24,263 nucleotides of DNA, from the NCBI GenBank assembly GCA_016929395.1, contig JAFGIX010000064.1:1-24263 (forward strand), read 5' to 3'. Positions 5,861 to 24,263 of this stretch are shown here, one piece after another (within the stretch, counting starts at the first letter, position 1; each line of letters starts with the position of its first letter). A program made the position numbers and the translations under genes. Origin of the DNA: Candidatus Zymogenus saltonus. Lineage in GTDB: Bacteria > Desulfobacterota > Zymogenia > Zymogenales > Zymogenaceae. The notes under the pieces were generated by a model that did no database searches, had not been told where the DNA came from, and was given only the letters and a program-made list of their open reading frames with translations.

Positions 5861-6021
5861 TATGCATATATATAGTGATACCGTTAAAGCAGATATGTAA
5901 TTTGTTGTTTGCCCCCACGGAAGCACACCCTCTCCGACCGGAAGTTGAGTCACTCAAAATTACATTTCAAATAAACTGACTTCTTAATAAACTTGCTTTT
6001 CATAACTTGAGGAACTTGACA

Positions 6022-6654
6022 ATGACAGAAGGGAAATCTCTAACTCATTTGTCTTATCGATCGGTCGTGGATGCAATAGAGGACATCTTGGGAAAAAGCG
6101 GTAAAAACTCCGTCCTGAACTTCGCCGGGTTGGGCTGGATGGTGAATAACCCGGTCGATTACGACCCCGAAGCCAGGGTCGCTTTCGATGATGTAACAAG
6201 GCTGTTTTACGGGGTCAGGGAGATCGTGGGGAATAAAGGATACGACATCATAATGTTCAGGGGGGGTGTAACCTCCGTAAAGAACATTGTAAAGCACTCC
6301 TTGCCCCTCCAAACCCTCATTACCATGAAATTAGACCCTATCGAAAAGCTAAAGTTGGGTTACCGGGCGTATATAACCAACGCAGGATACGATCCGGACA
6401 AGACGATGGAGCACTTCGGCGAGACCAGACAGATACTCATCCACAGGCCGGACTGCACGGAGTGTGAGATATACACCAAAGACAGTGAAAAACTAAAGGA
6501 ATTCAAGGAGCCTTCCTGCTCCTTTATTAAGGGCATTCTGTATGAGATCGGAAACATCTTCAAGGAAACAAAGGTGGCGGTGAATGAGGTGAAATGCAGG
6601 CTGCTGGGAGATGACGAGTGCCTCTATAAGATAGATTACGAGATCATCGGATAG
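6022..6654 (+). CDS. Cys-rich small protein with a V4R-like (putative small-hydrophobic-ligand-binding) C-terminal domain, 210 aa; paralog 1
   Basis: GAGGA lies 7 nt upstream of the ATG at 6022. The track start at 6007 is a TTG. C-terminal pattern CxxC...C...KC...GDDxC[LY]Y (DCTECEIY, PSCSF, VKCRLLGDDECLY) matches my recollection of the V4R domain (XylR/DmpR N-terminus, BchJ, COG1719). It is clearly paralogous to the next gene. Confidence 0.75.
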   Translation: MTEGKSLTHLSYRSVVDAIEDILGKSGKNSVLNFAGLGWMVNNPVDYDPEARVAFDDVTRLFYGVREIVGNKGYDIIMFRGGVTSVKNIVKHSLPLQTLITMKLDPIEKLKLGYRAYITNAGYDPDKTMEHFGETRQILIHRPDCTECEIYTKDSEKLKEFKEPSCSFIKGILYEIGNIFKETKVAVNEVKCRLLGDDECLYKIDYEIIG

Positions 6655-6822
6655 ATTTCAGCAGCGTTTAATTGACCTTGCAGGTCATTCTAAAGACGAG
6701 CTTGGGGGATCGATTTTACAAAGGGGTCTGTTTCTAAACATCTTTTTGTGCCTGCCGCAAAATGGCGCTCGCTGTCTTCTTGAACCGATATGGATATTAT
6801 CGGCAGGTCAAAGGAGGACAGG

Positions 6823-7410
6823 ATGGCCCAAGAGGGAATGGTCTCCAACATCACAATGAGATGCTCCATCGACGCCATAACCGAGATTTTGGGGGAGAAC
6901 GGGTGCAAGATAATCTTCAAGGGAGCCGGCATCCTTGACGTATTCGAGAATCCTCCCCCCTATGATTTCAATCCCTGTGTCACCGAGGGCAAGAGGGACA
7001 AAATGATTGCGGAGGTCGCAGATATTCTGGGACTCGAGGGCGCCCTGGGCGTTTGGAGACGCATAGGATTTACCGGAGCCAAATACGCGGTGGAGATAGG
7101 ACACGTCCTTGACGACAAGGAGGGACTCGAACCGGACGAGAAGTTCCTGAAGGCCCTCGAGCTGTGGAGCCTCGCCACCAGCGAGGGGAGAATAGTCATG
7201 CGCGACGACGGAAAGGCGGATTTTGACGTCTTCAACTGCCTTACCTGTATAAATTACAAATCCAAGAGGCCGATCTGCGCAACAACCGCGGGGGCGCTCC
7301 AATACATGTCGGACTGGGCCTACGGCGAGAAAAAGTATATAGTAAGGGAGATCAAGTGCAAGGCGATGGGGGACGATACCTGTTACTATACTTTGACGGA
7401 ACGGGATTAG
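6823..7410 (+). CDS. Cys-rich V4R-like small protein, 195 aa; paralog 2
   Basis: AAGGAGG at 6811-6817 lies 5 nt before the ATG at 6823. The track start at 6790 has no SD. Starting at 6823 makes the N-terminus colinear with paralog 1 (12 residues before Y/MRxxIDAIxEILG). The same five Cys are conserved (NCLTCINY, PICAT, IKCKAMGDDTCYY). Confidence 0.75.
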   Translation: MAQEGMVSNITMRCSIDAITEILGENGCKIIFKGAGILDVFENPPPYDFNPCVTEGKRDKMIAEVADILGLEGALGVWRRIGFTGAKYAVEIGHVLDDKEGLEPDEKFLKALELWSLATSEGRIVMRDDGKADFDVFNCLTCINYKSKRPICATTAGALQYMSDWAYGEKKYIVREIKCKAMGDDTCYYTLTERD

Positions 7411-7519
7411 CCGCACTTGATTAATGTCGTTGCCCCCGATTTTGAGTCTTGAGGAAATGACCCCCTCTAAAATGACACTTTAATATCAGCTGAAGACAGA
7501 AGATCAACAGTTTGCAAGG

Positions 7520-7557
7520 GGCAGGTCTCAAGAGCCGTCGCACCCCTTGAGCCTGCC
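7520..7557. promoter_or_regulatory. Inverted repeat between V4R paralog 2 and the GRE gene (ggcaggtctcaag / cttgagcctgcc, 13-nt loop)
   Basis: Arms at 7520-7532 and 7546-7557. An alternative aagggg/cccctt pairing (7515-7520 / 7543-7548) is possible. No U-tract. It sits 15 nt upstream of a -35 box. It could be an attenuator, a terminator or an operator. Confidence 0.3.
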
Positions 7558-7571
7558 GCTTTCCCCTGTCC

Positions 7572-7600
7572 TTGACTTTTGGCGCAATATCGACTATAAA
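7572..7600 (+). promoter_or_regulatory. Sigma-70-type promoter immediately upstream of the GRE gene (TTGACT-17-TATAAA)
   Basis: TTGACT at 7572-7577, a 17-nt spacer, TATAAA at 7595-7600, about 36 nt before the ATG at 7636. Confidence 0.4.
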
Positions 7601-7635
7601 CTAATTAAAAACCTGTAAACATTTGGGAGTTGACC

Positions 7636-10035
7636 ATGGAATCTGAGGCGTTAAATCTTAAAGAGAAGCTGAAGATCAAGGCGGTCAGGAACGTCAGGCG
7701 GGGATACGCGGAGGACGAGTCGGCGAGAGGCATGTACCGCCCCGGGATCACGCTGGACATACAGAGGTCGCGGCTGTTGACCGAATCGTACAGGGAGACC
7801 GAGGACGAGCCGATGGTGATGAGGCGGGCCAAGGGTCTCTACAACATCCTCTCAAAGATGGACATCTACATCCAGGACTGGGAGAGGATAGTAGGAAACA
7901 ACGTATCAACGCCTGAAGGCCTCTACTTTCCCATAGACATGAACTGGCGCTCAGTAAAGAGGGTGGTCAGCGGAAAGGAGGGGGAGGGTCTCCTTGACGA
8001 CGCCGGCAGGGAGGAGCTGGGGGAACTGGTCGATTACTGGCGCGGAAGATCGATGAGCGACATCCAGCAAAACACCTTCACCGGCGACGAGCTGAAGTAC
8101 TGGCGGTACGAGGGGACCTTCATGTGGACGCACTGGTCGGAGCTCGGAATCCCGAACTACGAAAAGATATTTAGGGTAGGCCTCAAGGGTATCATCGAGG
8201 AGGCGAGGAACCGCCTCGACGAGCTTGACCGGATTGTGCCTCTCGATTACGTCGATCAGAAGGAGTTTTTGCAGGCCGTTATAATATCTCTCAATGCAGT
8301 GATAAAGTTCGCCCACCGCTACGCCGAGCTTGCGGTAGAATTGCTCCTTAAGGCCAAAGATCCCGAGGACAGGCGGAGGCTTGAAAAAATTCAAAAGAGT
8401 TGCCTGTGGGTGCCGGAGAATCCCCCGCGAAACCTGGTCGAGGCCCTCCAGTCCTTCTTCTTCATACACGTCGTTCGATACATCGAGTATTCCACGCTGG
8501 GAATCGGGATTCGGTTCGACAAGATATTCGGCCCCTACTACGAGAGGGAGCTGAAAGAGGGAGCGATCACGAGAGAGGAGGGGCTGAAGCTTCTTCAGTT
8601 CCTCTGGGTCAAGTTTCACGAGCTGGGGCTCGTTTACTCCCCCATGCTGACCGCCGTATACGGAGGCGTGGCGTCCCTTCAGGCGATCACCCTTGGGGGT
8701 GTGGACGAAAACGGGGACGACGTCACAAACGAGATGACCTATCTCGTCCTGGATACGGCCGAGAGCATGAAGACGCTGGAGCCGAGCATCGCCCTGAGAT
8801 ACCACGACGGGACGCCGGACAAACTCCTCTCGAAGACGATAGATGTGATTCGTACCGGTATCGGCTATCCCTCCCTCTTCAACGACAAGTCGATTCTCCC
8901 CACCCTTACGGGGTGGGACGTCCCGGAGAGGGACGCCAGGGACTACGCGATCACCGGCTGCGTCTACCTGGAGCTTCCGGGCAAGAACATAGCCAGGAGG
9001 GCCTACGGAGGGATCCTCTTGACCAAGTGCCTCTGGTGGGCCCTTCACATGGGTAAAAATCCGGACACCGGGGAGCAGTGGGGCGCCCCCACCCCCGACC
9101 CGAGGTCCTTCAAATCGGCCGACGACCTGATGGACGCCTATCTCGAGCAGGTGCGCTTCTTCTTCGGGAAACTCAACAAGATCGAGAACACCTGCCGTAA
9201 CCTGTACGAAAAATACCTCCCCAGGCCATTCTACTCCGCCCTTCTGGACGGGTGCATCGAGAAGGGGATGGATTCGAGAAAGTGGGCTTATCCGTCGAGC
9301 GTCCACGACATCTGCATCATAATGGGCCCCACCAACACGGCCGACTCGATAACGGCGATCAAGAAGGTCGTCTTCGAGGACAAAAAGGTAACGATGGACG
9401 GGCTTATCAGGGCGATGGACAAGAACTGGGAGGGTTATGAAGAGATAAGACAGCTGATGCTGAACGCTCCTAAGTACGGAAACGACGACGATTACGCCGA
9501 CGAGATCGCTGTCCGGGTCCACCACGAGACCGCCCGGGTGATGGCGGAGTTCACCGACCGCTTCGGGAACCCCTGCCGTGGCGACGGGAGCGCCGTATCC
9601 GCCACCTACGGCGTCGCCATAAACACCCCCGCAACCCCGGACGGCAGGAGGGACGGGGAGGCCTTCAGCGACGCGACCCTCTCCCCGATTCAGGGGAGAG
9701 ACAGGAAGGGCCCAACGGCCGTCCTGAAATCCGCCTCAAAGATAGACACCACCAAGACCTACAACCACCTCCTGAACCAGAAGTTCCCCCCCTCGGCCCT
9801 GGAGGGGGAGATGAAGGAGGTGTTTAAGTCGTACATCAGGACATGGGGAGAACTCGGGGTCAGCCACGTCCAGTTCAACGTGGTAGACAAGGAGACTCTT
9901 TTGGACGCCCAGGAGAATCCCGGAAAATACCAGGACCTCATCGTCAGGGTGGCGGGGTACAGCGCCTATTTCGTCGACCTGAGCCGCGGACTCCAGGATT
10001 CGATCATATCGAGGACGCAGCAGGCCTTCAGCTGA
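7636..10035 (+). CDS. Glycyl radical enzyme (pyruvate formate-lyase superfamily, single-Cys PFL2/dehydratase-like class), 799 aa; substrate unknown
   Basis: GGGAG lies 6 nt upstream of the ATG at 7636. The track start at 7630 is a TTG. The C-terminal glycyl-radical fingerprint RVAGYSAYF has its Gly codon at 9955-9957 (residue 774, 25 from the end, the same offset as Gly734 in E. coli PflB). The mid-protein loop AITGCVYLELPG has a single candidate thiyl Cys (codon 8959-8961, residue 442). The size and N-terminal region fit GDH/CutC/HypD-like GREs rather than PFL itself. Confidence 0.9.
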   Translation: MESEALNLKEKLKIKAVRNVRRGYAEDESARGMYRPGITLDIQRSRLLTESYRETEDEPMVMRRAKGLYNILSKMDIYIQDWERIVGNNVSTPEGLYFPIDMNWRSVKRVVSGKEGEGLLDDAGREELGELVDYWRGRSMSDIQQNTFTGDELKYWRYEGTFMWTHWSELGIPNYEKIFRVGLKGIIEEARNRLDELDRIVPLDYVDQKEFLQAVIISLNAVIKFAHRYAELAVELLLKAKDPEDRRRLEKIQKSCLWVPENPPRNLVEALQSFFFIHVVRYIEYSTLGIGIRFDKIFGPYYERELKEGAITREEGLKLLQFLWVKFHELGLVYSPMLTAVYGGVASLQAITLGGVDENGDDVTNEMTYLVLDTAESMKTLEPSIALRYHDGTPDKLLSKTIDVIRTGIGYPSLFNDKSILPTLTGWDVPERDARDYAITGCVYLELPGKNIARRAYGGILLTKCLWWALHMGKNPDTGEQWGAPTPDPRSFKSADDLMDAYLEQVRFFFGKLNKIENTCRNLYEKYLPRPFYSALLDGCIEKGMDSRKWAYPSSVHDICIIMGPTNTADSITAIKKVVFEDKKVTMDGLIRAMDKNWEGYEEIRQLMLNAPKYGNDDDYADEIAVRVHHETARVMAEFTDRFGNPCRGDGSAVSATYGVAINTPATPDGRRDGEAFSDATLSPIQGRDRKGPTAVLKSASKIDTTKTYNHLLNQKFPPSALEGEMKEVFKSYIRTWGELGVSHVQFNVVDKETLLDAQENPGKYQDLIVRVAGYSAYFVDLSRGLQDSIISRTQQAFS

Positions 10036-10202: not shown

Positions 10203-11243
10203 ATGATGAAAAAGCTGTACATTTTATTTTTTCTCGTTATTTTTATCATTACCCTTTGCGCCCAAACAATGGCGGATGAGGCCGTAGGCTTTAAAGTCGT
10301 CACGGTTTCGGTTGGGGGCGAATATGAAATTTTATGCGGGGTATGGTACCCGGCCGCTGGAGGAAACGCCAGGGCTGCCTACGACTTCGGAAACGGCGCG
10401 GTTACGGGAAAGGCGATCAAAAACGCCGCCCCTAACAAAGATCTCGGCCCGCTTCCGATAATCGTATACTCCCACGGCTATTCGGGCTGCTCCCACTCGT
10501 CCGCCTTTCTTGTGGAGTCTCTTGCGGGGTCGGGATTCATCGTGATCGCCCCCGACCACACCGACGACCTGAAGGCGTGCAGCTTAAAGGAGGGCTTCGT
10601 AAGGGAGCGGGGATACGGATCCAAGCTCGCAAAAAGGGCGATACGATTAAGCCGGGCGCTCTCCAGCGGCGAATACGACACCGGCCACTTCAGATACAGG
10701 TACATGGAGGTGTCGGCCGCAATAGACTGGATAGTTAATGCGGGCGGTGATCCCGCGTCCCCCTTTTACGGCCTCGTGGACCCGGAAAAGATCGGGGCCG
10801 TCGGCCACTCCCTGGGGGCGTACAGCGTGCTTGCCGTATCGGGGGTAATCGATATCGCCCGCGATCCGAGGATCAGGGCGGTCGTTGCGATGTCGGGGCC
10901 GGGGGACAGGGTCTTTGCCTGCGACAAGATGACCGGTGTTAAGGTCCCCGCCATGCTGATGTACGGCGAAGACGAGAGGGGGCGAAAGGAAGAGGGATTA
11001 AACCTCCAGTATCGGTGTCTTGCTGAGCCGAAGTTCCTCCTTGTGATCTCGGGGGCGGATCACCTGACGTTTGCGGAGAGCAGTTTTAGGCGCAGAGACA
11101 GGGCCGCCGAGGAGAAGAGGCACACCGTTATAGCGAGGTACGTGGTTGTCTTCTTCGAGTATTTCATCAAGGGCCAAGAGGGGGCGAAGGGGGTGCTCAA
11201 AGTGCGGAATCCGGGCCTCGAACGGTACGATTTTAACTTTTGA
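10203..11243 (+). CDS. Secreted alpha/beta-hydrolase (dienelactone-hydrolase / PAF-acetylhydrolase / cutinase-like), 346 aa
   Basis: N-terminal signal peptide MMKKLYILFFLVIFIITLCAQTMA. Nucleophile elbow GHSLGA. VYSHGYSG oxyanion region. AGGAG lies 6 nt upstream. Confidence 0.8.
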   Translation: MMKKLYILFFLVIFIITLCAQTMADEAVGFKVVTVSVGGEYEILCGVWYPAAGGNARAAYDFGNGAVTGKAIKNAAPNKDLGPLPIIVYSHGYSGCSHSSAFLVESLAGSGFIVIAPDHTDDLKACSLKEGFVRERGYGSKLAKRAIRLSRALSSGEYDTGHFRYRYMEVSAAIDWIVNAGGDPASPFYGLVDPEKIGAVGHSLGAYSVLAVSGVIDIARDPRIRAVVAMSGPGDRVFACDKMTGVKVPAMLMYGEDERGRKEEGLNLQYRCLAEPKFLLVISGADHLTFAESSFRRRDRAAEEKRHTVIARYVVVFFEYFIKGQEGAKGVLKVRNPGLERYDFNF

Positions 11244-15442: not shown

Positions 15443-17005
15443 ATGGAGACATCAACGGAATATTCAAGGACAAGCAGGGAAACCACGGAGCTGAGCCTCA
15501 TCTACGAAATCAGCAAGACCCTCGACTCCAGCATGGAGATCGAGGATGTCCTGGGCCCTGTCCTCGAAAAGATGGCCACGCACATGGGGATGGTTCACGG
15601 CGCCATCACGCTTCTCGAGAGGCAGACCGGCGACATCTTCATCGACACCGCCTACGGCCTCTCCGATTCCCAGATGAAAAGGGGGAGATACAAGCTGGGC
15701 GAGGGAGTAACCGGAAGAGTCGTCCAGACCGGAAAGCCGGTTGTCGTCTCGCGAATCTCGGAGGAGCCCCAGTTCCTGAACAGGACCGGAGCGGGGAGGA
15801 GCTTCGCCGACAAGGACGTCTCCTTCATCTGCGTCCCCATAAAGCTGGAAAACGAGGTTATCGGCGCCCTGAGCTTCGACAGGCCCTACAGCGAAACGGC
15901 CCCCCTCGATGACGACATCCGAATACTCTCCATCATATCCTCCATGATAGCCCAGGCCGTCCACTTGAGGAGATCCGCCCAGGAGGAGCGCCAGAGACTC
16001 CTTGACGAGAATGTCAGGCTGAAGGAGGAGCTCAAGGACCGCTTTAAGCCCGACAACATCATAGGAAACTCCAAGGCGATGCAGGAGGTCTATGACCTGA
16101 TCATGCGGGTCTCCAAGACCAACGCGACGGTGCTGATCAAGGGGGAGAGCGGCACTGGAAAGGAGCTTGTCGCCCACGCCATCCATTTTCACAGCCAGAG
16201 GGCGAACAGCCCCTTCATAAAGGTCAACTGCGCGGCGCTGCCGGAGACGATCATAGAAAGCGAGCTCTTCGGCCACGAAAAGGGGGCCTTCACCGGCGCC
16301 CTCAAGACGAAGAAGGGGAGATTCGAGCTTGCCCACGGCGGGACCCTGTTCCTTGACGAGGTGGGGGACCTCTCCCAGGAGACCCAGATCAAGCTCTTGA
16401 GGGTCCTTCAGGAGCGGGAGTTCGAGAGGGTCGGGGGGACAGATACGATCAAGGTGAACGTCAGGATAATAACCGCCACAAACAGGGACATCGAGGCGCT
16501 GATAGAAAAAGGGAGCTTCAGGGAGGACTTATACTTTCGTCTGAACGTCTTTCCCATCCACATACCCCCGCTGAGAGACAGGAAAACGGACATCCTTCTT
16601 CTGGCCGACCACTTCGCCGAGAGGTACGGAAAAGAGAACAACAAGGCCATCAGGCGAATATCGACCCCCGCCATCGACATGTTGATGTGCTACCACTGGC
16701 CAGGAAACGTCCGTGAGCTCGAAAACACCATAGAGCGGGCCGTGATCCTGAGCAACAACAACGTTATCCACGGCCACCACCTCCCCCCCACCCTCCAGAC
16801 CGCCGAGGCCACGGGGACCCCCGTAAAGGCGACGCTTGGAGACGCCCTCGATTCGCTGGAGAGGGAGATGCTCCTGGACGCCCTTAAGTCCTCGAGGGGA
16901 AACAGGGCCGCCGCTGCGAGGCAGCTCGGCATATCGGAGAGGCTGATGGGGATACGCGTGAAAAAACACGGGATCGAGCCTGGAAGATTTCATACCAAAC
17001 GGTAG
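15443..17005 (+). CDS. Sigma-54-dependent transcriptional activator (bEBP) with N-terminal GAF domain, AAA+ core and C-terminal Fis-type HTH (NifA-like architecture), 520 aa
   Basis: Walker [15 protein letters not shown] motif in [15 protein letters not shown]. Arg-finger region. C-terminal [21 protein letters not shown]. The N-terminal roughly 170 aa is GAF-like. AAGGA lies 7 nt upstream. Confidence 0.9.
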
Positions 17006-17035
17006 CTTTATTAAGCTATTCCTACCATAAGGTAG
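16990..17035. promoter_or_regulatory. Putative enhancer (UAS) for the amtB sigma-54 promoter: TACC-aaac-GGTA (16993-17004, overlapping the activator stop codon) plus cTACC-ataa-GGTAg (17022-17035)
   Basis: Two TACC-N4-GGTA inverted repeats about 155-195 bp upstream of the -24/-12 element, the usual bEBP distance. The first lies within the 20-bp repeat shared with 15359-15378. Confidence 0.4.
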
Positions 17036-17186
17036 CATTTTTAAGCCTGACCGCCCCCATAATCCGCCAAACTTTCAAGATATTGGATCAATCCAAAAAA
17101 ACCGGATTTCATTTAAAACTATTAAATCAATAATATCAAGCCCTTATAAAACATCACCTCACTTTTAACGGCGACCTCCCGCCGCT

Positions 17187-22058: not shown

Positions 22059-23786
22059 ATGGGCATTTTGAGAATCGCCCAGGCACAGATAAACACAACC
22101 GTTGGCGACCTTGGCGGCAACTCCGCCAAGGTCGCCTCTTACATTAAAAGGGCCGTAGACGCCGATGCGGACATCGTCACGTTCCCGGAACTCGCCATAA
22201 GCGGATACCCCCCGGAAGACATCCTCTTGAAGCCGCAATTTCTGAGGGACTGCAGAAAGGCGATCGAGAGCGTCTTCGAGTCCACGGACGGGATCGCCGC
22301 GGTCGTCGGCTTTCCCGACTTCGCAGGAGACAAGGTCTTCAACGCCGCCGCCCTTATTTATGACCGAAAACTGCTGGCGATATACCACAAGGTGGAGCTT
22401 CCCAACTACGGGGTGTTCGACGAGAAGCGCTATTTCACTAGCGGAAACGAGCCCCTGACCTTTCTCCTGAACGGCAAGCGCCTCATGGTGACAGTATGCG
22501 AGGATATCTGGATAGAGGGAAGCCCGGTGGAAAATTTCGCATTAGACAACGACGTGGACATCGCCCTCAACCTCTCCGGCTCCCCCTTCCACGCCGGGAA
22601 GATTGAGATCAGGAAAAAGATAGCGTCAAGCTTCGCCGTCAGGACTAACACCTTCGTCTGTTACAACAACCTCGTCGGCGGCCAGGACGAACTCGTATTC
22701 GACGGGACGAGCCTCGTAGTGAACAGGGAGGGAAACGTCATAGACATGGGGAAGAGGTTCGAAGAAGACCTCTTCATCACCGACTTCGCGGATACGGAGA
22801 TCGACACCGCCGTCCCGTTTCCGAGGAGGGAGGCCCAAGATGCGGAGATCGTTATTGAAACGGAGGGAGGCAAAAGAAAGACGGCTGAAGACAGGCCGAT
22901 CCCCGAGATCGCCAGAAGGAAGTATGAAAATCACGGCGAAATAGACGAGATATGGAGGGCCCTCGTCCTGGGAACCGGAGATTACGTGAGGAAAAACGGC
23001 TTCAAGAAGGTCGTGATCGGCCTCTCCGGCGGGATAGACTCCACGCTGACCGCCGCCGTGGCGGTAGCCGCCTTAGGCAAAGAAAACGTCATCGGCGTCA
23101 CGATGCCGTCCATGTACACCTCGGATGAGACATTCAAAGACTCTGACCTGACGGCGAAGAACCTCGGAATCAGGCTGATAACAGTGCCCATAGAGCCGAT
23201 ATTCATATCGTATCTCGATCTCCTCGAAGGCCCCTTCGGCGAGGGGGAGCCGGGGGTCGAGGCGGAGAACCTCCAGGCGAGAATCAGAGGGAATATCCTC
23301 ATGGCCCTTTCCAACAGGTTCGGCTGGCTCGTCCTGACCACCGGCAACAAGAGCGAGATGGCGGTCGGCTACGCGACCCTCTACGGAGACATGGCGGGCG
23401 GCTTCGCCGTTATCAAGGACGTCCCCAAGACGACCGTATATAAAGTCTCGGAATACGTCAACAAGATCGAAGGGAGAGAGGTAATCCCTAAGAGCGTCAT
23501 CGAGCGACCCCCTACCGCGGAGCTGAGGCCCGACCAGAAGGACGAGGACTCACTCCCCCCCTACGAGGTACTCGATCCGATCCTGTCCGCCTACGTAGAG
23601 GGAGACGAAGACCCGAAAGAGATCGCGAAAAGAGGATATGACATCGAGACCGTGCTTGACGTCGTGAAGATGGTCGATCGCAACGAATACAAGAGGAGGC
23701 AGGCCCCGCCTGGGGTAAAGATCACGCCTAAGGCCTTCGGCAGGGACAGGAGGCTCCCCATCACGAACAGGTACCCGAAGAGGTGA
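22059..23786 (+). CDS. nadE: Glutamine-dependent NAD+ synthetase (N-terminal nitrilase/CN-hydrolase glutaminase domain plus C-terminal NAD synthetase domain), about 575 aa
   Basis: GGAAGGGA SD before the ATG at 22059. The track start at 22047 is a TTG. CN-hydrolase features FPELAISGY and VTVCEDIW. PP-loop GLSGGIDST. 30-nt gap from glnA, so probably co-transcribed. Confidence 0.9.
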   Translation: MGILRIAQAQINTTVGDLGGNSAKVASYIKRAVDADADIVTFPELAISGYPPEDILLKPQFLRDCRKAIESVFESTDGIAAVVGFPDFAGDKVFNAAALIYDRKLLAIYHKVELPNYGVFDEKRYFTSGNEPLTFLLNGKRLMVTVCEDIWIEGSPVENFALDNDVDIALNLSGSPFHAGKIEIRKKIASSFAVRTNTFVCYNNLVGGQDELVFDGTSLVVNREGNVIDMGKRFEEDLFITDFADTEIDTAVPFPRREAQDAEIVIETEGGKRKTAEDRPIPEIARRKYENHGEIDEIWRALVLGTGDYVRKNGFKKVVIGLSGGIDSTLTAAVAVAALGKENVIGVTMPSMYTSDETFKDSDLTAKNLGIRLITVPIEPIFISYLDLLEGPFGEGEPGVEAENLQARIRGNILMALSNRFGWLVLTTGNKSEMAVGYATLYGDMAGGFAVIKDVPKTTVYKVSEYVNKIEGREVIPKSVIERPPTAELRPDQKDEDSLPPYEVLDPILSAYVEGDEDPKEIAKRGYDIETVLDVVKMVDRNEYKRRQAPPGVKITPKAFGRDRRLPITNRYPKR

Positions 23787-23865
23787 AGACGAGATTCTTT
23801 CACAGGGGGTCTTTTACAGGTGCAATATATGACGGCCCCTTCAACTCCCTAAGTATTGATATGCT

Positions 23866-24263
23866 GTCATTCCAAGCAATACAAAGGAATCCAGATAGAT
23901 ATTATTCACTGGATTCCCGTTTTCACGGGAATGACAAAATAGTCTTTCACTGGATTCCCGCTTCCCAATGGAATCTATACTGTCATTCCCAACCTGATTG
24001 GGAATCCAGATAGATATTATTCACTGGATTCCCGTTTTCACGGGAATGACAAAATAGTTATTTCAATGGATTCCCGCTTCCCAAGGGAATCTATACTGTC
24101 ATTCCCAACCTGATTGGGAATCCAGATAGATATTATTCACTGGATTCCCGCTTTCGCGGGAATGACAGAATAGTCTTTCACTGGATTCCCGTTTGCACGG
24201 GAATGACAAAATAGTTATTTCAATGGATTCCCGCTTCCCAAGGGAATCTATACTGTCATTCCC
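23866..24263. repeat. Complex tandem array of hairpin modules (REP/BIME-like) running off the right edge of the window. Not CRISPR.
   Basis: Composite units start at 23866, 23982, 24098 and 24255 (periods 116, 116, 157 bp). They are built from three roughly 40-bp hairpin modules sharing GGATTCCC/GGGAATCC cores: gtcattcccaacctgattgggaatcc; tcactggattcccgNNNNNNcgggaatgacaRaatag (a 41-bp module, duplicated in the third unit with loops ttttca/ctttcg/tttgca); and ggattcccgcttcccaagggaatc. A degenerate first copy begins at 23861. No unique spacers. Confidence 0.8.

Follow-up and report, generated by a model that had tools for sequence, protein, structure and literature searches.

The window analysed here is an entire contig of 24,263 bp from a MAG of Candidatus Zymogenus saltonus, an uncultured bacterium related to sulfate reducers (Desulfobacterota, class Ca. 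Zymogenia; JAFGIX000000000, Illumina reads assembled with MegaHit). It carries a block comprising the genes for a sigma-54 activator, amtB, glnB, an SPFH protein, glnA and, as its final gene, nadE, whose product is 100% identical to MBN1574063.1 of Ca. Z. saltonus. An array of short hairpin modules starts 80 bp past the nadE stop codon and runs to the end of the contig, where it stops in the middle of a module (Table 1). This is a genuine contig end and not a cut made by the window, and the assembly did break on the repeat, as a first-pass annotation of the sequence had proposed. Since a short-read contig genuinely ends within a module, the number of units counted is a minimum, and perhaps not a reliable one. 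Many other contigs in our sampled scans likewise end at such hairpins.

The direct-repeat spacings of 116, 116 and 41 bp resolve the array into units of 116, 116 and 157 bp, the same units that the first-pass annotation had read from about position 23866. Tandem Repeats Finder gave a period of 116 with 2.7 copies and 94% matches over 23886-24191 and, nested at 24136-24236, one of 41 bp, confirming this layout as well as the duplication of one module in the last unit, which accounts for the extra module A4. The palindromic core ATTCCC-N6-12-GGGAAT occurs eight times, always within 23913-24247, against an expected 0.02, and GTCATTCCC occurs seven times against an expectation of 0.34. No sequence similar to the array was found in the rest of the window.

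Table 1. Position, strand and character of nadE and of the hairpin modules on the contig
Feature	Position	Strand	Sequence	Remarks
nadE (glutamine-dependent NAD+ synthetase)	22059..23786	+		Pfam NAD_synthase + CN_hydrolase
Whole hairpin array	23866..24263			Order C'(decayed)-A-B / C-A-B / C-A-A-B / C(truncated); cut by contig end
C', decayed C-type module	23866..23894	+	GTCATTCCAAGCAATACAAAGGAATCCAG	Left array edge; read from sequence
A1, NTS-type hairpin	23909..23936	-	TGTCATTCCCGTGAAAACGGGAATCCAG	SRM match; 3 mismatches to NTS; dRS3 N8 consensus present
B1, decayed	23950..23977	-	TAGATTCCATTGGGAAGCGGGAATCCAG	GTC flank and one stem base lost; weak fold, z = -1.46
C1	23981..24009	+	TGTCATTCCCAACCTGATTGGGAATCCAG	Both NTS flanks; 9-nt centre (AA/TT inner stem, CCTGA loop); no match to SRM pattern
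A2	24024..24051	-	TGTCATTCCCGTGAAAACGGGAATCCAG	SRM match; fold -7.8 kcal/mol
B2, decayed third subtype	24066..24094	-	ATAGATTCCCTTGGGAAGCGGGAATCCAT	Without GTC flank; weak fold, z = -1.88
C2	24097..24125	+	as C1	Motif match and fold
A3, canonical NTS	24140..24167	-	TGTCATTCCCGCGAAAGCGGGAATCCAG	One mismatch to CGTCATTCCCGCGMAVGCGGGAATCYRG; -10.4 kcal/mol, z = -4.56
A4, extra 41-bp module	24181..24208	-	TGTCATTCCCGTGCAAACGGGAATCCAG	Repeat spacing, SRM match, fold
B3, decayed	24223..24251	-	as B2	Motif read
C3, start	24254..24263	+	TGTCATTCCC	Truncated at contig end; retains only 5' GTC flank

Three module types, which have half-sites in common, make up the array. Module A is present in four copies on the minus strand and reads TGTCATTCCC-G[YG..RM]C-GGGAATCCAG. 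Module C, found on the plus strand in two complete, one truncated and one decayed copy, reads TGTCATTCCC-AACCTGATT-GGGAATCCAG, while the three minus-strand copies of module B follow (A)TAGATTCC(C/A)-TTGGGAAGC-GGGAATCCA(T/G) and have lost the GTC flank. Intact B-type copies with both flanks exist at three other loci of our sample (L132, L137 and L138). In addition, a decayed first module resembling C' of the window lies at positions 10780-10808 of locus L001. The 41-bp module that corresponds to A does recur four times (at 23913, 24028, 24144 and 24185, with the inner sequences GTTTTCAC, GTTTTCAC, GCTTTCGC and GTTTGCAC), as the first-pass annotation had stated; what it described as a varying 6-nt loop is however a 4-nt loop plus one compensatory stem pair (T-A to C-G). 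The hairpin cores of the array have a GC content of 48% compared with 37% for the spacers, which measure 10-22 bp with one exception of 52 bp. With eight cores per 400 bp, as opposed to a maximum of four among 120 genome loci sampled (a Neisseria lactamica locus included) and six at the best of the viral loci sampled, the array is denser than any other sampled locus, and it combines three hairpin subtypes within one tandemly amplified unit.

In Neisseria, the element dRS3 (20 bp, consensus ATTCCC-N8-GGGAAT) separates the RS elements of NIME arrays (Parkhill 2000; Bentley et al. 2007, PMC1797815). About half of the dRS3 copies belong to a 28-nt oriented element termed NTS, CGTCATTCCCGCGMAVGCGGGAATCYRG, and NTS-like 'Ssn-related motifs' (SRM) are present in many bacteria (Chenal et al. 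2025, PMC11893778). The strict dRS3 consensus has four exact matches in the window, at the four positions of the 41-bp module given above, all of them A modules; modules B and C possess N9 centres and therefore fall outside it. Defining NTS as CGTCATTCCCGCGMAVGCGGGAATCYRG with at most one mismatch (PMC11893778), the minus-strand copy at 24140-24167 is an NTS with a single mismatch and the other three A copies have three mismatches, whereas shuffled sequences gave no matches even when up to six mismatches were allowed. The SRM pattern, HGTCWYN(0-2)YYVSBRHN(0-5)WNVSBRGN(0-2)RNCYNB (PMC11893778), likewise matched four times, always an A module on the minus strand, against a shuffle mean of 0.2. 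Modules C and B did not match this pattern, in the case of module C solely because its inner stem and loop differ. Both key flanks, the 5' GTC and the 3' C, are present in all four A modules and in both complete C modules, and the GTC is missing from all three copies of B. The identity of the repeat as NTS/SRM-type can thus be regarded as secure, and the extended, oriented form of dRS3, as judged from its sequence, is found outside Neisseria in a Desulfobacterota MAG, although the family as such was already known.

Computed as single-stranded DNA, the whole array folds far better than shuffled sequence (z = -10.7 for the plus and -8.1 for the minus strand). Modules A and C are predicted to form 8-bp stems with loops of 4-5 nt at z = -3.2 to -4.6, with energies of -7.8 to -10.4 kcal/mol for module A and of -8.7 kcal/mol for C1 (z = -3.76), while module B folds weakly (z = -1.5 to -1.9). 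An alternative long-range pairing of C with A, for which -18.9 kcal/mol is predicted, agrees with the earlier proposal that adjacent modules can pair with each other. Among 396 sampled copies of the hairpin, the inner two stem pairs are Watson-Crick in 97-98.5% and the third inner position is unpaired. Compensatory double changes were seen from G-C to A-T in 33 and from C-G to T-A in 16 of these copies, and together with the Watson-Crick inner pairs they show that the hairpin fold is under selection.

The closest relative, with 88% DNA identity over 8.4 kb and 88% identity of NadE, has kept the same operon but has a plain spacer of 237 bp and no array after nadE; homology between the window and this sister lineage stops at 23781. 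The relative carries a C-A-B-C-A composite 2 kb further on, and we have considered that the window array might be orthologous to it, the intervening sequence having been deleted; the junction sequences do not align however, and on the right the flank is cut off by the end of the contig. When metagenomes were scanned with the lineage-specific spacer, 18 contigs representing about ten independent array loci of the sister lineage were found, at some of which the 157-bp C-A-B-C unit can be aligned over its whole length with 80-83% identity. These arrays are mosaics in which a conserved C-A doublet is combined with B-type hairpins that are intact, with decayed copies and with a second, unrelated palindrome (CCACTGACAAGC...GCTTGTCAGTG), which was not found in the window. 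Between two nearly identical contigs from other Desulfobacterota MAGs, L148 and L149, the difference is a single additional 33-nt spacer plus NTS. The suspicion of the first-pass annotation that the modules belong to a dispersed multi-copy family was therefore well founded, both for the composite in the sister lineage and for the core hairpin, which occurs across many phyla.

To follow the extended hairpin beyond this lineage, the pattern CTGGATTCCC-N8/9-GGGAATGAC with 19 fixed bases was scanned against one genome per species (596 Gb), where about nine chance matches are expected by our own uniform-composition arithmetic. At least 120 matches were obtained in the genome collection and at least 120 in a collection of viral contigs, in many phyla. 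Among the matches listed are Chloroflexota (closed chromosomes included), Nitrospirota, Planctomycetota, several Desulfobacterota and Patescibacteria, Campylobacterota, Gemmatimonadota and many Proteobacteria, among them isolates and Neisseria. All copy numbers and lists of taxa drawn from these scans are to be read as samples and not as censuses. The commonest hairpin centres in the sample, GCGCAGGC, GCGAAGGC and GCGAAAGC, fit the NTS consensus, and both the GTGAAAAC centre of the window and the 9-nt centre of the C type recur in sampled copies from other phyla. Neighbouring hairpins in the genome sample are spaced by 23-91 bp and are arranged mostly as '+-' (30 cases, as opposed to five '-+' and one same-strand pair); the viral sample shows a less pronounced bias (35 '+-', 17 '++', 15 '-+' and 12 '--').

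The known partner protein of NTS is SsnA, the product of ssnA, a 94-aa single-domain GIY-YIG gene (cd10448) that is spatially associated with SRM (PMC11893778). SsnA binds the NTS hairpin solely as single-stranded DNA and on one of the two strands, its cut falling a few nucleotides upstream; cleavage requires the GTC 5' of the palindrome and binding the C 3' of it, and RNA is not bound (PMC11893778). In N. meningitidis the system reduces transformation by NTS-containing DNA (PMC11893778). Activity is lost when the sequence of the palindrome is altered even though the hairpin is kept (PMC11893778), so that the C- and B-type modules may not be substrates of the enzyme acting on A.

A tblastn search of the window contig and of sister-lineage contigs totalling about 150 kb found no homolog of Ssn. 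A 93-aa GIY-YIG gene (PF01541) was present in 9 of 240 loci which had been sampled only for the hairpin, and it was nearly always abutted by hairpins. In about 2 Mb of sampled loci, a GIY-YIG gene of 93-97 aa was the sole cargo fitting exactly between a forward and the next reverse hairpin 100-3000 bp apart, and no transposase was found in this position. A homology search with one such protein yielded 4,894 relatives of 93-101 aa, the best 120 of which share 61-72% identity across phyla and include MAGs labelled Desulfobacterota, Desulfomonilaceae and Deltaproteobacteria. On the contigs of these three MAG groups (L148-L158), 11 nt separate the end of the forward NTS from the start codon of ssn, and the reverse NTS begins 1-2 nt past the stop codon. 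The flanks of these bracketing hairpins in the Desulfobacterota/Deltaproteobacteria MAGs, TGTCATTCCC...GGGAATCCAG, are those of the window modules, and their '+-' orientation is that of the C-A pair in the window. We infer with moderate confidence that Ca. Z. saltonus encodes an Ssn protein which acts here; that modules A and C are cleaved, and that this has a biological consequence, is likewise what we infer.

Taken together, the region is likely to be a NIME-like mosaic of NTS/SRM hairpin sites for an Ssn-type GIY-YIG nuclease that has been amplified locally, and this is the best explanation we can offer. The NTS/SRM sequence identity of the modules, their fold, their dispersal, the presence or absence of the array between close relatives and the hairpin-bracketed ssn genes in the same phylum are established. 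The unit consists of a tail-to-tail doublet, with C on the plus and A on the minus strand 22 bp apart, together with a decayed module B, and this 116-bp unit has been amplified in tandem. The extra A was most likely gained by unequal recombination in the 14-mer tcaCTGGATTCCCG that is common to A and B. Whenever the DNA turns single-stranded, e.g. while it is replicated, repaired, taken up or transferred, each module of type A or C would fold into an 8-bp stem with a loop of 4-5 nt. The cognate Ssn of about 95 aa would then bind the hairpin and the following C on the strand reading GTCATTCCC...GGGAATCCAG and would nick it a few nucleotides 5' of the GTC. As the plus strand carries a C module every 116-157 nt and the minus strand four A modules, Ssn would chop single-stranded copies of the locus into short pieces, and such cutting would limit or redirect recombination at the locus. 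The repeat family has most likely spread as a selfish (or domesticated) NTS-ssn-NTS unit along with gene-less doublet derivatives.

Other enzymes have been weighed as partners of the array. RAYT-associated REPs are marked by a 5' GT[AG]G head, and neither GTAG nor GTGG nor their complements occur anywhere in 23866-24263. The first-pass annotation had likened the region to a REP/BIME cluster maintained by a RAYT, i.e. an IS200/IS605-like Y1 transposase, and as to the class of repeat it was right: the array is intergenic and mosaic, its imperfect palindromes alternate in orientation, and it has REPIN-like doublets (in the genome sample, '+-' 30 vs 5 and 1) and a variable number of modules, and an analogy to REP/BIME has also been drawn by Chenal et al. 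(PMC11893778). The family and the enzyme are others however, since the modules match NTS/SRM instead, the Y1_Tnp domain is absent from all 18 large ORFs of the contig, and the exact-fit cargo between hairpins at the hairpin-sampled loci is always GIY-YIG and never a Y1 transposase; with the GIY-YIG nuclease Ssn as the demonstrated partner, upkeep by a RAYT is very improbable. A MITE pile-up as the source of the C-A doublet is unproven. It is also unlikely, if somewhat less remote, that the array is a landing pad for a site-specific recombinase and has grown by repeated integration and excision. dRS3 is indeed the target of the transposase/recombinase of Neisseria filamentous prophages (PMC1797815, PMC11893778), hairpins abound on contigs predicted to be viral or prophage, and the new spacer plus NTS that L149 carries beside an existing NTS, when compared with L148, looks site-directed and unlike simple slippage. 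There are however no recombinase or phage genes near the array on the contig, and the near-identical tandem units are more simply explained by unequal recombination. Such a landing pad and recognition by Ssn would be mutually compatible.

A role at the RNA level, with the array as a structured 3' UTR of the glnA-nadE transcript (a stabiliser or attenuator) or as a source of small RNA, has in its favour the short distance to nadE with no terminator predicted in between, as well as the fact that the hairpins would fold in RNA too and that the verified Francisella sRNA FtrB has an NTS-type hairpin. We consider this improbable, as the hairpins lie in both orientations, the unpaired flanks (GTC, CCAG) are conserved although an RNA stem does not require them, no stem is followed by a U-tract, the closest relative has the same operon without the array, and SsnA does not bind RNA (PMC11893778); at best, an RNA-level role would be a side effect. 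Homology to FtrB (RF02748) itself was rejected because the Rfam scores of 22-24 bits compare with a gathering threshold of 66 and only the hairpin is in common, which explains the weak matches. An intrinsic terminator was rejected as well, there being no GC-rich stem with a T-run in the array on either strand, and so was a promoter reading of the array. CRISPR was dismissed already in the first-pass annotation for lack of unique spacers, and we agree, given that the spacers are themselves repeated and that the hairpins lie in both orientations. It could finally be argued that dispersed repeats were mis-assembled into a tandem at the contig end, the MAG being a short-read MegaHit assembly whose contig ends within a module, as other contigs also end at hairpins. 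The units differ however by specific substitutions in a consistent pattern, and the same composite order including the spacers is present in independent assemblies of other samples, which makes an artefact hardly credible; the modules are certainly real and their copy number alone is uncertain.

The NIME-like mosaic of Ssn sites which we favour leads to a further and rather doubtful suggestion, namely that the C(+)/A(-) doublet is a REPIN-like gene-less derivative of a compact NTS-ssn-NTS unit of about 360 bp and that Ssn mobilises or amplifies hairpins besides restricting single-stranded DNA. Hints in this direction are the 30:5:1 bias for '+-', the same orientation of the hairpins around ssn, the 61-72% identity across phyla among the best 120 of the 4,894 relatives, and the differences in presence or absence and in module number. 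Excision by Ssn alone is hard to picture, since only one end of a '+-' unit can be cleaved per strand, and no target-site signature was seen. If true, this would constitute a class of mobile element driven by a GIY-YIG nuclease and based on single-stranded DNA, in parallel to RAYT/REPIN and IS200/IS605. In any case, the bias among doublets and the close fit of the hairpins around ssn bear on the question, raised by PMC11893778, of whether NTS-ssn-NTS is a mobile element.

Thus, a puzzling contig-end repeat gains a known molecular identity and a candidate partner enzyme, and NIME-like arrays, which were held to be Neisseria-specific by Bentley et al. 2007 (PMC1797815), are extended to an uncultured class of Desulfobacterota. 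Being compact and containing three hairpin subtypes with identical flanks, the array also represents a natural test set for the stem and loop specificity of Ssn. From a practical point of view, NTS-type hairpins interrupt assemblies from short reads and give rise to spurious database ORFs, such as those for the peptides LDSRFHGNDK, WIPVFTGMT and VIPVKTGIQ.

Among known systems, the likeness to Francisella FtrB (RF02748) consists in the GTCATTCCCGCGTAGGCGGGAATC hairpin which FtrB contains, and the window modules score weakly on the FtrB model. With REP/BIME and REPIN-RAYT of E. coli and Pseudomonas the array shares short imperfect palindromes, inverted doublets and intergenic arrays; in the NTS-Ssn system, as in theirs, the repeats are recognised as hairpins of single-stranded DNA and copies of them flank the partner gene. 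The array differs in belonging to another sequence family without the GT[AG]G head and in its associated protein, which is a GIY-YIG nuclease and not an HUH/Y1 transposase. The dRS3/NIME arrays of Neisseria (PMC1797815) resemble it in the ATTCCC-N8-GGGAAT core (here in the four A modules), in the lower-GC spacers that produce a GC wave, in the varying array length between relatives and in the mosaic composition seen at the sister loci. The name NIME is however defined for Neisseria, outside which such arrays were not seen according to Bentley et al. 2007 (PMC1797815); its RS elements are about 50-150 bp long (range 19-214 bp; PMC1797815), compared with spacers of 10-52 bp in the window, which apart from the one of 52 bp lie at or below the lower limit of that range, and they belong to many RS families, whereas the units here are near-identical tandem copies. 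Unlike the NTS/SRM-SsnA system as described (PMC11893778), the window comes from an uncultured Desulfobacterota class, has spacers mostly of 10-22 bp and no ssn on the contig, and combines the canonical A with C and B, which have 9-nt centres and fall outside the SRM pattern, in one 116-bp unit. With that system it shares a 28-nt oriented hairpin whose flanks and stem are the same, the 8-bp stem and a GNRR-type loop, the multi-copy (in the sister lineage), intergenic and clustered occurrence, and, in the same phylum, ssn genes bracketed by hairpins with identical flanks.

Proteins resembling Ssn, the single-domain GIY-YIG nuclease that partners the hairpins, are 93-101 aa long and share 61-72% identity between MAGs of different phyla (best 120 of 4,894 relatives), the MAGs being labelled as Patescibacteria, Chloroflexota, Poribacteria, Omnitrophota, Bacteroidetes, Desulfobacterota and Proteobacteria. 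Because this identity far exceeds that of housekeeping proteins at comparable distances, the sequence comparison suggests frequent horizontal transfer of Ssn-like genes.

Dense NTS arrays are also found on predicted viral or prophage contigs from IMG/VR, where the hairpins may belong either to the phage or to flanking host DNA, and some of these arrays are mostly in a single orientation. Among the matches listed, 6 of 120 viral loci carry Ssn-like genes. In addition, the extended hairpin occurs on contigs binned as a Nanoarchaeota MAG (L059) and a Klebsiella pneumoniae MAG (L011), which may be either binning contaminants or real transfers.

Two otherwise near-identical Desulfobacterota-related contigs with a hairpin-bracketed ssn gene (L148 and L149) differ by one extra unit consisting of a 33-nt novel spacer and an NTS, located directly after ssn. 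Besides tandem slippage, arrays seem to grow when NTS-containing segments are added beside an NTS already in place.

Within the window, the array has weak Rfam matches to FtrB, an sRNA of Francisella. An NTS-type hairpin is present in the Northern probe published for FtrB, GAGATTCCCGCCTACGCGGGAATGACTACCGACG, so that a verified 115-nt Francisella sRNA embeds an NTS-type repeat; this sequence likeness suggests that FtrB could be an SRM element that is transcribed. Spurious ORFs run across the array as well, encoding among others the peptides LDSRFHGNDK, HWIPVFTGMT, VIPVKTGIQ, SFPCKRESS and CHSRESGNP. Since strings of this kind are common among the 'hypothetical proteins' of many bacteria, the NTS-type repeat family probably contaminates protein databases.

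Elsewhere in the window, a direct repeat straddles the boundary between the sigma-54 activator gene (at its 3' end) and the spacer that precedes amtB, and is possibly a pair of regulatory binding sites. The gene for a glycyl-radical enzyme (PFL-like plus Gly_radical) has two V4R-domain protein genes immediately upstream, and the window ORFs scanned included no recognisable activating enzyme.

Coordinates of the features discussed
Locus	Position	Feature
Window	6007-10035	V4R and glycyl-radical genes
Window	16989-17046	direct repeat, 30 bp, 1.9 copies, TTCATACCAAAAGGTAGCATTATTAAGCTA
Window	23783-24209	spurious ORFs
Window	23897-24177 (-)	FtrB matches, 22-24 bits (gathering score 66)
L148	2883-2910	compared with L149
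L149	780-868	compared with L148
L171		NTS array, predicted viral or prophage contig with 23 cores
L202	2371-3035	NTS array, predicted viral or prophage contig
L225, L227, L268		NTS arrays, predicted viral or prophage contigs
L138	8610-8655	second palindrome
L001	10955-11010	second palindrome
L134, L143, L146		second palindrome
L140	1480-1760	hairpin type with GTCATTGCGAG head, e.g. ttgtcattgcgagcctgccaaaggcaggcgtggcaatc

In L140, another type of hairpin, with the head GTCATTGCGAG, adjoins NTS-type modules; it may be a further SRM variant that has an Ssn specificity of its own. The window lacks a second palindromic repeat, approximately CCACTGACAAGCARGAGCTTGTCAGTGSCACCCRACGCA, that recurs within the hairpin arrays of the sister lineage, where it resembles an RS element in a NIME, the Neisseria array of dRS3 and RS elements.
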